Shown: one piece after another, positions 52,494 to 57,497 of the stretch
How the letters are laid out: each line of letters starts with the position of its first letter
Position numbering within the stretch: position 1 is the stretch's first letter
DNA from: Candidatus Aphodosoma sp.
GTDB taxonomy: Bacteria; Bacteroidota; Bacteroidia; Bacteroidales; Paludibacteraceae
Direction of reading: 5' to 3'
Assembly: GCA_045658305.1 (NCBI GenBank)
Contig: JAZOUT010000087.1
Span: 1,046 to 65,045 of the forward strand
DNA: 64,000 nt
Made by a program: the position numbers and the translations under genes
Notes under the pieces: generated by a model
The model's input: the letters and a program-made list of their open reading frames with translations, nothing else
Told to the model about the DNA's origin: nothing
Databases searched by the model: none

Positions 52494-52763
52494 ATGTACT
52501 TAGACGCAGAAAAAAAACAAGAAATTTTTGGTAAATACGGTAAATCAACTACTGACACAGGTTCTCCTGAGTCTCAAATTGCGTTGTTCTCTTTCCGTAT
52601 CGCTCGTTTGACAGAACACCTTCAATCAAATCGTAAAGATTATAGCACTGAGCGTGCTTTGCGTATGTTGGTAGGTAAACGTCGTCGTATGCTCGACTAC
52701 TTGAAACAAGTTGACATCGAACGCTACCGTGCTATCATTAAAGAATTGGGCCTCCGCCGCTAA
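52494..52763 (+). CDS. rpsO: 30S ribosomal protein S15
   Basis: 89 aa. MYLDAEKKQEIFGKYG...DTGSPESQIALFS.RI..LTEHL..N.KD..S.R.L..LVGKRRR.L.YL is the canonical S15. Confidence 0.97.
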   Translation: MYLDAEKKQEIFGKYGKSTTDTGSPESQIALFSFRIARLTEHLQSNRKDYSTERALRMLVGKRRRMLDYLKQVDIERYRAIIKELGLRR

Positions 52764-52905: not shown

Positions 52906-53304
52906 ATGAAAAAAATCCACCTATTAATAACAGCAGCAATTATTTGGGGAATACCTGGCATCTCATTAACCATCAAAGGCATATCGGCATATCTCGCTCA
53001 ACAAAAATCTGACCTTTGGTGGCTTTTGCTCATTACTCTTTTCGTATTAACCTCATTCTTCTTCATATTCCGAAAGATAGTCAATCGCTACTCCGACAGA
53101 ATAATAAATCTCCCAGAGCGAAACAACCTACTACAAACATTCCCCTTTCGCGGCTGGTTTCTTCTTATATTCATGATGGGTTTAGGCATATCACTCAAAT
53201 ATATACCAAACATTCCTCTTGCTTTCACCGCTTGCTTCTATTCTGGATTAGGACCAATGTTAATTCTATCAGCAATAAAATTTCTTACATACACAAAAAA
53301 ATAG
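52906..53304 (+). CDS. Small 4-TM membrane protein of unknown function (132 aa)
   Basis: Complete ORF with four hydrophobic helices and its own terminator. No family recognised. Confidence 0.7.
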   Translation: MKKIHLLITAAIIWGIPGISLTIKGISAYLAQQKSDLWWLLLITLFVLTSFFFIFRKIVNRYSDRIINLPERNNLLQTFPFRGWFLLIFMMGLGISLKYIPNIPLAFTACFYSGLGPMLILSAIKFLTYTKK

Positions 53305-53335
53305 AGATGCCAACATTACGCATCTCTATTTTTTA
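53295..53335 (+). terminator. Rho-independent terminator overlapping the TAG stop of 52906..53304 (TAGAGRYGCAA family)
   Basis: atagagatgc (53301-10) pairs with gcatctctat (53320-29), followed by a T-run. Confidence 0.8.
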
Positions 53336-53340
53336 TCATA

Positions 53341-53559
53341 ACCATTAAGCGAATAATTCTACATTATGAACCGAAGGTCATGAGCCTTTAGGCGAATAAT
53401 TGTGAATTGTGAACCGAAGGTCATGAGCCGTTAGGCAAATAATTATGCATTATACATTGTGAACCGAAGGTCATGACCGTTAAGGCGAATAATTGTGAAT
53501 TGTGCATTGTGCATTATGCATTGTGCATTGTGAATTGTGAATTGTGAATTGTGCATTAA
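53341..53559. repeat. Composite satellite downstream of polA: three ~44-52-bp units (GCGAATAATT-heptamers-GAACCGAAGGTCATGAGCC) followed by a 9.5-unit heptamer array
   Basis: gaaccgaaggtcatga(g)cc occurs at 53368, 53412 and 53461. The pure array 53491-53557 reads aattgtg aattgtg cattgtg cattatg cattgtg cattgtg aattgtg aattgtg aattgtg catt and ends 2 nt before the polA stop codon. Confidence 0.9.
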
Positions 53560-56541
53560 CTAATGCGCCTCAAGCCAATTCGACCCCACACCAATATCCA
53601 CTCGCAATGGCACCGACAATTTCACGGCTCCTTCCATCTCTTCGCGCACCAATGCCTTCACTCTTTCCACCTCATCAAGCGGAACGTTAAAGTTCAATTC
53701 GTCGTGCACTTGCAATAGCATCTCTGCCTTCAATCCCTCGCGCTTTAATCTATCGGCTATCTTCACCATTGCTATCTTTATAATATCTGCCGCCGTGCCT
53801 TGTATTGGCGCATTCACAGCATTGCGCTCGGCATATCCTCTCACATTTGCGTTCCGTGAATTTATATCTGGCAAATATCTCCTGCGGTGCAACATCGTCT
53901 CTACATACCCATCTCTACGCGCATTCTCTATCGTTGTGTCAATATAATCTTTCACACCTGGGAAGCTCATAAAGTATCCATCTATCAACTCCTTAGCCTC
54001 AGCACGCGATATACCCAATCTCTCCGACAACCCAAAAATAGAGATACCATATATAATGCCAAAATTCGCAGTCTTAGCCTTCCTACGCATATCGCTCGTC
54101 ACCTCCTCAATCGGCACTTTATAGATATTTGCTGCCGTTGCCGCGTGAATGTCATGGTCGGCATTGAACGCCGCCAACATATTCTCATCTTGCGACAAAT
54201 GCGCCATCAATCTTAGCTCTACTTGCGAGTAGTCGGCCGACATAAACACGTGCCCTTCAGATGCTATGAATGCCTTGCGTATCTCTTTGCCTTGCTCATC
54301 GCGAATAGGTATATTCTGCAAGTTTGGGTTCGACGACGACAATCGTCCCGTAGCCGTAACGGTTTGGTTAAACGATGTATGCACTCTGCCTGTCCGCCCA
54401 TTTATCAATTTTGGCAATGCATCTATATAGGTGCTGAGCAACTTCTTCACTCCCCTATATTCCAATATCTCGCCCACCACTGGGTGTTTCGCTCTCAATC
54501 CCTCCAATGTCTCCTCGTCCGTAACATATTGTCCACTTTTTGTTTTCTTAGCTTTATCGCTTATTTTCAACACATCAAACAACAATTCTCCCACCTGTTT
54601 AGGCGAACTAATATTTAGGTTCGAGCCCGATATTTCACGTATATGACGCTCTATGCGCTGCATTTCGGCTGTCATCACGCCCGACGATTGCGCCAATGCA
54701 AAGTCGTCTATTATCACCCCCGTGCGCTCCATCTCTGCCAACACTCTCACGAGTGGCATCTCCACTTCATAAAACAATCTCGCCAAACTTCCATTGTCCC
54801 CACTATTGTCCCCCTGTCTTAGGGGGACGAGCGTAGCGGAGGGGGTCAAACCCACAGGGGGCAAACTCACGGGGGTCAAACCCTCGGGGGTCAAACTCAA
54901 TTGTGGCTCCAACACACCCCTCAATCGCAACGTAATATCAGCATCCTCTGCCGCATAATTGGTTATCTTATCCAACGGCACATCGCGCATCGACCCCTGA
55001 TTCTTTCCCTTCGCGCCTATCAACTCATCGATATGTATTGTCTTATATTTCAACAATATCTCTGCCAAGTAGTCCATACTATGACGCAACTCTGGTTGCA
55101 ACAAATAGTGCGCTATCATCGTGTCAAATAGTTGTCCTTTCAACTCAACACCATAATTTGCCAGCACCATCAAGTCGTATTTAATGTTATGCCCCGTCTT
55201 CTCAATCGCCTCATTCTCAAATACTGCGCGAAACAAATCTACCGTCTTTTGAGCCTCTGCCCTATCCTCACTCACCGGCACATAATATGCTGTAGGCAAT
55301 TGTGAGTTCTCCGACAAGTCCGACAGGTCTGACCCGTCCAACAAATCCGAATTGTGCATTGTGCATTGTACATTGTGCATTGCAAAAGAAAATCCCACCA
55401 ACTCCGCATCCAACACATCCAACGACGTAGTCTCTGTGTCGAACGCAAACATCTTCACCCCCATCAACATCTCCACCAACTCCCTCTGCTTCTCCTCCGT
55501 ATCCACACACACATAATTCACCTTCTCAACATCAAAACTCGCAAACTTCACCTCCTCATTCTCAATTCTCAATTCTCCATTCTCAATTCTCAATTCCTCA
55601 TTCCTAATTCCTAACTCCTCATTATCAAAAAGCGACCCCATCCCCGAATTATCCTTCACTCCTAACTCCTCATTCCTAATTCCTAATTTCTTAATGTGGC
55701 TCCTAAACTCCAACTCCTCATAGATTTCCACCAACGCCTTCACATCTGGCTCCTCTATCACAAATCGCGCCTCATCAAACTCTACAGGCGCATCGGTCTT
55801 TATCGTAGCCAAGAATTTCGAGAACCTAATCTGCTCCACATTTGCCTCCACCTTCGCCCTTAGCGCACCTTTTATTTCATCCGTATGCGACAACATATTG
55901 TCTATACCGCCAAATTGTTGCAACAACTTCACCGCTGTCTTCTCTCCCACGCCTGGGCAACCAGGTATGTTGTCCGACGCATCACCCATCAATCCCAACA
56001 AATCAATCACTTGCGCAGTCGATTCCAACCCCCATTTCTCCAACACCTCTGCCACGCCGAGCGTATCAAATCCCGACCCGCCAAATCGTGGTTTATAGAT
56101 TTTAATATTCTCTGTCACCAACTGCCCATAATCCTTATCAGGCGTCATCATCAACACCTCAAAACCCTCCTTCTCAGCCAACCCTGCCAACGTACCAATC
56201 ACATCATCTGCCTCATAGCCCGGCACCTCAATCACCGGTATTCTATATGCCTCCACTATCTGCTTGATGATAGGCACCGCCTTACGAATATCCTCTGGCG
56301 TAGCCTCACGATTTGCCTTATACTCCTCGTATGCCTCATGCCTGAATGTCGGACCCGACGGGTCGAACACCACTGCCAAATGCGAAGGCTTCTCCCGTGT
56401 CAACACATCCTCCAGCGTATTCACAAAACCAAATATCGCCGACGTATTCATCCCCTTCGAATTAATCCTCGGCATACGCATAAATGCATAATAAGCCCTA
56501 TAAATCAACGCATAAGCATCAAGCAAAAACAATCTTTTCAT
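53560..56541 (-). CDS. polA: DNA polymerase I (993 aa) carrying three in-frame short-repeat insertions
   Basis: 5'-nuclease N-terminus (LFLLDAYALIYRAYYA), 3'-5' exo (FAFDTETTSLD), polymerase motifs (DYSQVELR, RRKAKTANFGIIYG, QVHDEL). Low-complexity inserts are detailed under findings. Confidence 0.96.
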   Translation of the reverse strand: MKRLFLLDAYALIYRAYYAFMRMPRINSKGMNTSAIFGFVNTLEDVLTREKPSHLAVVFDPSGPTFRHEAYEEYKANREATPEDIRKAVPIIKQIVEAYRIPVIEVPGYEADDVIGTLAGLAEKEGFEVLMMTPDKDYGQLVTENIKIYKPRFGGSGFDTLGVAEVLEKWGLESTAQVIDLLGLMGDASDNIPGCPGVGEKTAVKLLQQFGGIDNMLSHTDEIKGALRAKVEANVEQIRFSKFLATIKTDAPVEFDEARFVIEEPDVKALVEIYEELEFRSHIKKLGIRNEELGVKDNSGMGSLFDNEELGIRNEELRIENGELRIENEEVKFASFDVEKVNYVCVDTEEKQRELVEMLMGVKMFAFDTETTSLDVLDAELVGFSFAMHNVQCTMHNSDLLDGSDLSDLSENSQLPTAYYVPVSEDRAEAQKTVDLFRAVFENEAIEKTGHNIKYDLMVLANYGVELKGQLFDTMIAHYLLQPELRHSMDYLAEILLKYKTIHIDELIGAKGKNQGSMRDVPLDKITNYAAEDADITLRLRGVLEPQLSLTPEGLTPVSLPPVGLTPSATLVPLRQGDNSGDNGSLARLFYEVEMPLVRVLAEMERTGVIIDDFALAQSSGVMTAEMQRIERHIREISGSNLNISSPKQVGELLFDVLKISDKAKKTKSGQYVTDEETLEGLRAKHPVVGEILEYRGVKKLLSTYIDALPKLINGRTGRVHTSFNQTVTATGRLSSSNPNLQNIPIRDEQGKEIRKAFIASEGHVFMSADYSQVELRLMAHLSQDENMLAAFNADHDIHAATAANIYKVPIEEVTSDMRRKAKTANFGIIYGISIFGLSERLGISRAEAKELIDGYFMSFPGVKDYIDTTIENARRDGYVETMLHRRRYLPDINSRNANVRGYAERNAVNAPIQGTAADIIKIAMVKIADRLKREGLKAEMLLQVHDELNFNVPLDEVERVKALVREEMEGAVKLSVPLRVDIGVGSNWLEAH
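54791..54898 (-). repeat. In-frame repeat insertion 3 in polA: 2x12-bp units, a 7-bp-stem palindrome and 4x15-bp units
   Basis: attgtcccc recurs at a 12-nt spacing. Palindrome gtccccc-tgtctta-gggggac. Four 15-mers, (g)gggtcaaac-type, at 54839-54898. Translated as LTPEGLTPVSLPPVGLTPSATLVPLRQGDNSGDNGS. Confidence 0.85.
55311..55383 (-). repeat. In-frame repeat insertion 2 in polA: 5x9-bp (CCGACAAGT family) abutting 4.7x7-bp (ATTGTGC family)
   Basis: ccgacaagt ccgacaggt ctgacccgt ccaacaaat ccgaattgt, then attgtgc attgtgc attgtac attgtgc attgc. Translated as AMHNVQCTMHNSDLLDGSDLSDLSE. Confidence 0.9.
55554..55688 (-). repeat. In-frame repeat insertion 1 in polA: 10-unit and 4-unit heptamer arrays (AATTGAG/AATTAGG/AATGAGG on the coding strand)
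   Basis: Plus strand 55554-55623: cctcatt ctcaatt ctcaatt ctccatt ctcaatt ctcaatt cctcatt cctaatt cctaact cctcatt. 55661-55688: cctaact cctcatt cctaatt cctaatt. Translated as NEELGIRNEELRIENGELRIENEE and LGIRNEELG. Confidence 0.9.
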
Positions 56542-56776: not shown

Positions 56777-56859
56777 CAATCATGAGCGAAGCGAATAACT
56801 CTTAATTAACACAACGCCGCATGGCAATTTTATCGCCAAAGGCACAAAGACCTTCGGTT

Positions 56860-56887
56860 CTTAATTCTTAATTGTTAATTATTAATT
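56860..56887. repeat. Heptamer array (CTTAATT x4), preceded by gaccttcggttc, the rc of the GAACCGAAGGTC module seen at 53368/53412/53461
   Basis: cttaatt cttaatt gttaatt attaatt. Confidence 0.8.
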
Positions 56888-57189
56888 CCCCCCCACTCAT
56901 AGTGTGTACTACCCCACAGCAACCCTCAAGCAACCTGCAAGCAAGCAAACAGTCAAGGAGAGAACGCAAACACACACTCACAGTATGTGTTTTGCTGAGC
57001 GACGCAGACTGTTCACGACCGAAGGGAGTAAACCGTCAAAAAGCGAACGCAAAAATACACAACGAGAGTGTGTATTCCGCAGTGTAGGGACACTCGGTTC
57101 GAGTGTCCTCTCAACCGACAGGTTGAAAAAAACATAATCATTTGTCTCTAACGAAACATCGGACGCACGAACCGAGCATCCCTGCTAAT

Positions 57190-57462: not shown

Positions 57463-57497
57463 CACTAATAACTAGTAACTAGTAACTAATCACTAAA
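57463..57497 (+). repeat. Heptamer array (5 units) in the hydrogenase 5' UTR, ending 4 nt before the ATG
   Basis: cactaat aactagt aactagt aactaat cactaaa. Confidence 0.75.

Follow-up and report, generated by a model that had tools for sequence, protein, structure and literature searches.

The 64,000-nt stretch analysed here (the window, whose positions are used as coordinates below) belongs to a 2.56-Mb metagenome-assembled genome (MAG; 7.7% contamination; hereafter G000) of Candidatus Aphodosoma sp. In this window polA is followed, downstream of its stop codon, by an array of heptamers interrupted by three precise 29-nt inserts. The inserts are members of a family of short modules restricted to one clade, and the array occupies an orthologous locus that is hypervariable and prone to recombination. 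We consider it reasonably probable that this array is an allele of a hypervariable repeat locus which accompanies the 3' end of polA throughout a single subclade of an uncultured genus of gut Bacteroidales, and that it arose by copying of modules into heptamer repeats and has no function for polA.

The gap between polA (53560-56541, minus strand) and the convergent open reading frame (ORF) at 52906-53304 comprises 255 nt (53305-53559), and positions 53337-53559 form a single (A/C)ATT(G/A)TG array of approximately 16 units (Table 1). Three 29-nt inserts (referred to as cores a, b and c), of the form AACCGAAGGTCATGA(G)CC-N4-GGCGAAT, are placed at unit boundaries, and a truncated fourth stands at the start of the array. 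Tandem Repeats Finder (TRF) reported a 43-nt period repeated 3.6 times at 53345-53504 and a 7-nt period repeated 9.6 times (91% match) at 53491-53557, while a repeat search of the gap gave three 56-nt copies spaced by 43 and 50 nt. The cores differ from one another at 2-4 positions and the spacers between them consist of two and three heptamers. A preceding sequence-only reading of this DNA had presented the whole 255-nt gap as repeat DNA holding three higher-order satellite units. The length, the repeats and the three copies were confirmed in the assembled sequence, but the first ~40 nt (53294-53335) constitute a terminator-like hairpin, and the anatomy is that of one heptamer array with three 29-nt inserts. 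The unit proposed at that time, (T/G)TAGGCGAATAATT followed by heptamers and GAACC..., turned out to be a circular permutation, since the register parse gives a 29-nt core between whole heptamers as the natural unit. Two details of that description were correct, i.e. an array of 9.5 heptamers ending 2 nt before the polA stop codon and the palindrome GGTCATGACC in the third copy, the latter being produced in core c by a 1-nt deletion (GAGCC to GACC). As a tandem unit array beyond chance, whose copy number varies among relatives, the repeat has the features of a heptanucleotide long simple sequence repeat (LSSR). In the whole G000 genome, arrays of period 7 number 668, against 97 for period 6 and 255 for period 8.

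The inserts of the gap are variants of a canonical 30-nt core, AACC-N3-GGTCTTTGAGCC-N3-GGCGATAA, of which an nhmmer profile detected approximately 25 clear and approximately 40 probable copies in G000. The sequence GACCTTCGGTTC, which corresponds on the opposite strand to the core's 5' half, was counted 13 times in this genome (0.13 expected), in agreement with the earlier claim that the modules recur elsewhere. Nearly all of the G000 cores are embedded in heptamer arrays, the unit of which varies from copy to copy (AATTGAG, AAAGTTG, AATTAAG, AAATTTG, AATGAGG and others). For 17 of 25 cores, all three of the gap among them, the heptamer on the right continues the one on the left at shift 0 (every other shift was represented by 0-3 cores), and excision of exactly 29 or 30 nt leaves a seamless, in-phase array. 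The core therefore has the behaviour of a discrete insertion placed at the G|AA unit boundary. Its flanks are whole in-phase heptamers with no visible duplication, a 0-bp and a 7-bp target duplication being indistinguishable inside a heptamer array. The conserved parts of the core are two mini-palindromes with free 3-nt centres (ACC-N3-GGT and GCC-N3-GGC), the linker and the tail.

Two companion modules accompany the cores. Element 2 is a G5/C5 palindrome (translated as PPVLGG...EGV) that often adjoins them. Element 3 is a unit of ~75 nt resembling a MITE (miniature inverted-repeat transposable element), ACTCCCTTCGGTCGTGA...CTCGTTTATCGCAAAAATT (also written ACTCCCTTCGGTCGTGATTTTTGC...CTCGTTTATCGCAAAAATT), with at least 11 copies in G000; examples are found at L098, L096, L128 and L135 and at positions C46:13998, C66:18772 and C139:22166 of the G000 contigs. 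Its fold contains a terminal pairing of ~8 bp, its ends resemble both ends of the core, and in some strains it substitutes for the cores at the polA 3' locus.

A search with a 25-nt core pattern revealed 7-30 copies in each of 12 of the 26 genomes of the genus, and none in 275 genomes from 32 further genera in the family or in 8 genomes of other families of the order (the reversed pattern, used as a control, gave 0 matches). Arrays of the (ATTGTGM)3 type are present in exactly the same 12 genomes of the genus. The core-bearing genomes share at least 89% identity in the polA C-terminus (7 genomes with polA found) and at least 90% in the helicase (10 genomes and G000), the remainder not exceeding 82%, and therefore constitute one subclade; a patchy spread suggestive of horizontal gene transfer within the genus was rejected on this basis. 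As the 12 genomes are a single clade, the co-distribution of cores and heptamers counts as one evolutionary event. Viral contigs contained zero exact matches to the 25-nt core, and a phage origin of the core was discarded.

The usual gene order in the subclade is rpsO(+), terminator, array, polA(-) and hydrogenase(+), with rpsO as the direct convergent neighbour of polA in the sister genomes (as judged from synteny); genomes G007 and G167 have other polA neighbours. Over the genomes and contigs of the subclade, the content of the locus ranges from 0.5 to 3 cores and from 2 to 17 heptamers, the cores being replaced by a 75-nt module in some alleles (Table 1). Among ten independent metagenome contigs encoding an identical S15 protein, there are alleles with one core, with two cores 2-5 heptamers apart and with three different core variants; one metagenome contig with S15 has neither a polA neighbour nor repeats. 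No two alleles of the polA gap were alike among the genomes and metagenome contigs examined. A dot-plot and a comparison of the polA flanks in relatives, both of which the sequence-only reading had proposed, displayed a hypervariable orthologous locus. The nearest contig, L128, has the small ORF (present between rpsO and the array only there and in G000) and the truncated core in common with G000, and carries three 75-nt elements where G000 has three cores. Identity between the two sequences is 97.3% up to position 53366 (rpsO, small ORF and terminator) and 89.5% from 53527 into polA, and this fall across the array places a recombination boundary inside it. Given that the module family is restricted to one group and that the locus is different in each related strain, the region resembles a hotspot for repeat DNA of a selfish or neutral kind and not a device of polA.

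Table 1. Coordinates and content of the repeat modules, of the genes around them, of the polA gap in related genomes and of genes considered as drivers. Locations are window positions, or G000 contig positions where a contig (C) is named.
Feature	Location	Strand	Evidence or content
rpsO (ribosomal protein S15)	52494-52763	+	Pfam PF00312, E 9.7e-33
132-aa ORF	52906-53304	+	ORF list; convergent with polA
Terminator-like bidirectional hairpin	53294-53335		A-run, ATAGAGATGC, 9-nt loop, GCATCTCTAT, T-run
Truncated core 3' end, CCATTAAGCGAAT	53342-53354	+	Register parse; repeat family D6; kept in L128
2 heptamers after truncated core	53355-53368	+	Register parse
Core a, AACCGAAGGTCATGAGCCTTTAGGCGAAT, 29 nt	53369-53397	+	nhmmer E 6.3e-7; phase continuity 5/7 at shift 0
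Two heptamers, AATTGTG AATTGTG	53398-53411	+	TRF, register parse
Core b, AACCGAAGGTCATGAGCCGTTAGGCAAAT	53412-53440	+	nhmmer E 9.7e-6; phase continuity 6/7
Three heptamers, AATTATG CATTATA CATTGTG	53441-53461	+	Register parse
Core c, AACCGAAGGTCATGACCGTTAAGGCGAAT	53462-53490	+	nhmmer E 4.3e-5; phase continuity 6/7
Nine (A/C)ATT(G/A)TG heptamers and CATTAA, abutting the polA stop codon	53491-53559	+	TRF, register parse
polA, 993 aa	53560-56541	-	Pfam DNA_pol_A and both exonuclease domains; stop codon 53560-62
Solo end-module CATGAGCGAAGCGAATAAC with heptamer-like CTTAATT	56781-56808	+	3-4 genome copies vs ~0 expected; repeat family D6
Canonical 30-nt core, inverted (56831-56860); 5' of it, four heptamers of the AATTAAG type (56861-56887)	56828-56887	-	nhmmer E 1.4e-9; inverted repeats I1/I2
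TCACGACCGAAGGGAGTAA, other end of element 3, within a different composite repeat	57010-57030	+	4 copies vs 0.03 expected
G000 genes with in-frame cores, heptamers, element 2	C81:1762-2538, C79:28486-29820, C81:11522-12499, C4:1105-2463, C12:9480-11477		truB, DEAD-box helicase, dapF, MATE transporter, outer membrane protein (OMP)-like
polA gap, G272			1 core + 2 heptamers
polA gap, G006			1 core + 12 heptamers
polA gap, G090			Internally deleted core + 11 heptamers
polA gap, G064			Degenerate core + 17 heptamers
polA gap, G007			Core + 3 heptamers + 75-nt element
polA gap, G167			Half core + 75-nt element
polA 3' end, G012			Array absent
Sole G000 Y1 transposase gene, RAYT-like (L089)	C2:5072-5620		Own REPs TTTTTGAGACGTAGCAGGCTACGTCTCTAC on both sides
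Four IVS-type four-helix-bundle genes, PF05635 (L090-L093)	C5:4557-4910, C25:1786-2151, C77:8152-8508, C147:10665-11036		Inverted heptamer arrays bracket each, e.g. (AATGCAC)n ... (ATTGTGC)n

The modules are also found within genes. Cores and heptamers are translated in frame in the C-terminal tail of truB (...EPKVFEPLGDEIISEANNS*), in the linker of a DEAD-box helicase, in dapF and in genes for a MATE transporter and an OMP-like protein, and the translation of polA contains in-frame inserts of heptamer, 9-mer and 15-mer type and of element 2 (VPLRQGDN), as the sequence-only reading had noticed. The helicase linker provides a graded series: it is empty in G257, G090 and G064, contains heptamers only in G235 and G167, heptamers with element 2 in G007 and, in addition, a core in G000. 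This series shows that arrays exist first and that modules arrive later.

The number of heptamers would shift through replication slippage, which is the accepted view for such arrays (PMC4679880). Cores, element 2 and the 75-nt element may have been copied precisely into existing arrays, with no visible target duplication; the simplest route would be microhomology-guided template switching or gene conversion between arrays, or else the action of some enzyme, and a module with its flanking units could then duplicate in tandem. The array would lie in the 3' untranslated region (UTR) of polA, ahead of a bidirectional terminator shared with the convergent gene, and be tolerated there. It probably serves polA in no way, and its main consequence would be to mark a hotspot of recombination and rearrangement. 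Several considerations weigh against this explanation. The copy-in mechanism is a proposed one, and template switching or conversion between arrays with units as unlike as AATGAGG, AAATTTG and AATTAAG would have just 2-4 nt of homology to work with. Enzyme-driven insertion would explain the exact boundaries equally well. The persistence of an array at the polA 3' end in most of the examined alleles of the subclade (G012 being the exception) could reflect selection for a function as spacer or 3'UTR and not neutrality. The allele with three cores and nine heptamers comes from one short-read MAG contig, and the co-distributions in 12 genomes amount to a single evolutionary observation.

The enzymatic route leads to an alternative that we regard as unlikely, in which the core would be a non-autonomous transposable element of miniature size, mobilised in trans by an enzyme targeting heptamer-unit boundaries, either by single-strand "peel-and-paste" of the kind used by IS200/IS605 elements or by transposases associated with repetitive extragenic palindromic (REP) sequences (RAYTs), with the mini-palindromes acting as end hairpins, or with a 7-bp target duplication hidden in the array. 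Precise and phase-preserving insertion with a fixed boundary in 17 of 25 copies speaks for such an element, as do the lack of terminal inverted repeats (AACC... and ...GATAA, with which the core begins and finishes, show no inverted match to each other, which also separates the core from MITEs) and of a visible duplication and the two subterminal mini-palindromes. Presence/absence polymorphism at orthologous sites, the high similarity of copies across 12 species and the occurrence of a Y1 (HUH) transposase gene in the genome are likewise in its favour. This gene, however, is bordered by REPs of its own (GAGACGTAGC..GCTACGTCTC) that are unrelated to the core, and the core was therefore rejected as a REP of the G000 RAYT. 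Moreover, Y1 genes do not track the core, as they occur in 8 of the 12 core-bearing and in 4 of the 14 core-free genomes. A search for TnpB found none, and no transposase linked to the core was identified. With regard to IS200/IS605-derived palindrome-associated elements, the core was seen to have a fixed G|AA boundary and no terminal inverted repeats; its stems are of only 3-4 bp, and no linked TnpA was found. Single-stranded DNA folds of the cores are no better than those of shuffled sequences (z from -0.6 to -1.9). To our knowledge, all described transposable units are far larger than 30 nt.

RNAfold predicted a 7-8-bp stem (CCGAAGG/CCTTTGG) in the core. Its variation was followed in 123 copies from five sister genomes (G003, G064, G167, G235 and G257), in which the central triplets vary freely (GAA, AAC, ATC, AAA and AGA on the 5' side; TTT, GAA, TTC, CTT and TCT on the 3' side). 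These variants break the pairing without compensation and, as the folds are also no better than shuffles, the idea of a hairpin conserved as a structure in RNA or DNA was dismissed. In the 3' mini-palindrome (GCC-N3-GGC) the central triplet is seen both as TTC and as its reverse complement GAA; such flips may reflect inversion of the loop through intrastrand template switching, and they hint at hairpin formation during replication.

A further possibility concerns the genes of the intervening sequence (IVS) type, which encode four-helix-bundle proteins (PF05635) and are each bracketed by inverted heptamer arrays in G000 (Table 1). Ten of the 12 repeat-bearing genomes carry several such genes (2-8 per genome, each likewise bracketed), and 3 of the 14 others carry a single one. 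The cores and their companions might represent a new minimal form of selfish DNA, i.e. 30-nt "array-homing" inserts that would copy themselves specifically into heptamer arrays at the unit boundary, with neither inverted ends nor a visible duplication, driven by a clade-specific activity and possibly tied to IVS/Avd-like cassettes, but we judge this quite unlikely. If it were true, heptamer arrays would be landing pads through which non-coding modules reach both intergenic DNA and, in frame, essential genes. The link between IVS cassettes and cores is one of co-occurrence only, within one clade, and the core was rejected as an obligatory part of the cassettes, given that none of the four in G000 carries a core and one in G006 does. 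The polA gap differs from these heptamer-bracketed cassettes in having neither a gene nor an inverted arm. Literature searches on heptamer repeats, whether of Bacteroidales or associated with IVS proteins, gave no results. In the G006 cassette (C40:55950-56800, L125), the left heptamer arm includes a full core and a partial one; they lie upstream of the gene and share its orientation.

It appears distinctly improbable that the array functions in cis for the polA transcription unit or the convergent gene pair, whether as a 3'UTR stabiliser or spacer similar to REPs or bacterial interspersed mosaic elements (BIMEs), as a platform with several sites for a protein that binds DNA or RNA or as a buffer against collision with rpsO transcription. 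The array does lie between the polA stop codon and the putative bidirectional terminator, and some array is retained in most genomes and contigs of the subclade even where the neighbouring gene changes. For other phyla, heptamer repeats close to gene ends have been put forward as binding sites of regulators (PMC4679880). Furthermore, minus-strand RNA spanning the gap has a better fold than shuffled sequences (z -4.0), although much of this is supplied by the terminator. On the other hand, every allele differs in content, copy number and even module type, the polA 3' end of G012 is devoid of an array, and the modules lie in either orientation to genes and within coding regions. No covariation was detected, and Rfam 15 gave no match at the gathering threshold in the window except one tRNA, the gap itself yielding only chance-level hits (E 0.7-0.9). 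The mixed orientation of cores relative to neighbouring genes (about 9 sense, 9 antisense, 5 convergent and 1 divergent) led to rejection of the core as a fixed-strand terminator or 3'UTR element. When a G+C-rich hairpin followed by a U-run was sought, the cores had no T-run on either strand, and the only terminator-like hairpin of the gap was that at 53294-53335. For a role as a Bacteroidetes promoter (TTTG / TAnnTTTG), the spacing, judged by eye, does not fit.

That the triple-core arrangement is an assembly artefact, stitched from short reads of a mixed population into a copy number of no single cell, is very improbable: the repeat block (~220 nt, with an internal period of 43-50 nt) does exceed a typical short read, the source is a MAG with contamination and many alleles of the locus co-exist in metagenomes, but the cores and spacers differ from one another and so supply unique assembly anchors, alleles of like design with two cores or three modules come from independent assemblies, and three canonical cores stand in tandem, 44 nt apart (30 + 14), at another locus (G257:C110).

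On the far side of polA, related modules are present as well. The sequence-only reading had considered polA to be flanked by related repeat mosaics; modules of the same kind do occur on both sides, but a particular relation to polA is not supported, as they are spread genome-wide (truB, dapF, the DEAD-box helicase and MATE transporter genes and others). An inverted canonical core at 56828-56860 with heptamers up to 56887 was found where a module with heptamers (56849-87) had been indicated. The segment catgagcgaagcgaataa is real (3 genome copies, ~0 expected) but lies at 56781-56798 and not at 56771-88; this match is accounted for by an alternative end of element 3, TCATGAGCGAAGCGAATAATT, and the solo end-module to which it belongs (56781-56808) is the terminal brick common to element 3 and the variant core. 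The motif cgaccgaagg, placed at 57017, is also genuine but is part of a different module family (57010-57030), with similar contexts at G000:C113:1145 and in a mosaic of G007. By contrast with the segment at 57010-57030 (4 copies, 0.03 expected), cgaaccgag, reported at 57167 and located at 57168, is at chance level (6 copies, 7.4 expected) and belongs to an unrelated REP-like hairpin pair (I3). The upstream mosaic is missing in most sister genomes, and G167, G272 and G090 have a plain polA-hydrogenase spacer of ~230 nt.

A different arrangement of the region is seen in G012 (contig C64; L101/L121), in which polA keeps its place between rpsO and the gene of the [FeFe]-hydrogenase but is inverted, with its stop toward the hydrogenase start and its start toward the rpsO terminator. 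The breakpoints of this inversion, as compared with the rpsO-flanked loci of G000, G272 and G090 (rpsO(+), polA(-), hydrogenase(+)), sit in two repeat-bearing spacers.

Heptamer repeats are the commonest long bacterial microsatellites. Other short repeats form mosaics, namely the BIMEs of enterobacteria, composed of REP sequences or palindromic units (PUs), and the Neisseria intergenic mosaic elements (NIMEs); these are variable mosaics of modules, often located between convergent genes, variable among strains and linked to rearrangements. The modules described here resemble BIMEs and NIMEs in being short, dispersed and arranged in variable mosaics downstream of stop codons. Unlike them, the cores are unconvincing as palindromes, have no GTAG-type REP head, are unlinked to RAYT and are present in coding sequence; none of the traits of a REP or BIME (a stable imperfect palindrome, a cognate RAYT flanked by the unit and a strictly extragenic location) was found in the core.

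LSSRs of the heptanucleotide class were described by Mrazek et al. (2007), as summarised in PMC4679880, and heptamer arrays of the TAACTGA type are known from Beggiatoaceae, Cyanobacteria and Bacteroidetes (PMC4679880). The polA array has much in common with them, i.e. tandem 7-nt units, an intergenic position near start or stop codons, variable copy number and slippage as the accepted source of variation. A role in gene rearrangement has already been suggested for the Bacteroidetes examples, including Paludibacter (PMC4679880). What sets the present array apart is that it carries 29-30-nt and 75-nt modules at unit boundaries, such embedded modules not being described in that work. BrickBuilt of Porphyromonas gingivalis (PMC4596501) is a spacer-less 23-nt minisatellite with leader and tail subunits, set within the frame of a MITE whose ends are inverted; its location is always intergenic. 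It is likewise a tandem repeat of Bacteroidales with unique subunits, tens of copies and strain variability, and is restricted to one species; judged by the published description, the differences are the 7-nt period, the insertion of bricks within the array and the copies in genes. Finally, Rickettsia palindromic elements (RPEs; mentioned in PMC1779305 and PMC10969869) are also small non-coding repeats of one lineage that persist in frame in housekeeping genes and intergenically. RPEs are palindromic, of ~100-150 bp and not tied to microsatellite arrays, and have no sequence relationship to the modules. The combination of a 7-nt array with inserts at unit boundaries is thus found in none of the heptamer LSSRs and TAACTGA arrays, BIMEs and NIMEs, BrickBuilt or RPEs.

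In one clade of gut Bacteroidales, therefore, heptamer arrays act as carriers of discrete modules that enter at unit boundaries, are interchangeable at an orthologous site and are able to survive in frame in housekeeping genes. The locus, together with the module family, offers a concrete and testable system for the study of short repeats that seed genome plasticity. It also calls for caution in annotation, as the intergenic "satellites" and the odd low-complexity protein inserts of this lineage have a common origin. For polA itself, there is no indication of a special function.

As regards the neighbouring features, a Pfam search of the 132-aa ORF gave no family match, and an exact-protein look-up retrieved zero independent copies of the G000 allele. 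The hairpin overlapping the end of this ORF folds, in minus-strand RNA, into a 14-bp stem followed by a U-run, and probably ends the transcripts of both the small ORF and polA. The nearest named matches of polA are distant (Candidatus Colousia and uncultured Bacteroidales, 62-65% identity). The polA-hydrogenase spacer contains, at 57086-57183, REP-like hairpins (AGGGACACTCGGTTCGAGTGTCC / GGACGCACGAACCGAGCATCCCT) similar to the REPs flanking the RAYT gene. Immediately upstream of the hydrogenase start codon (57464-57496) there are heptamers of the TAACTAG/TAACTAA type, which resemble the TAACTGA arrays found before start codons (PMC4679880).

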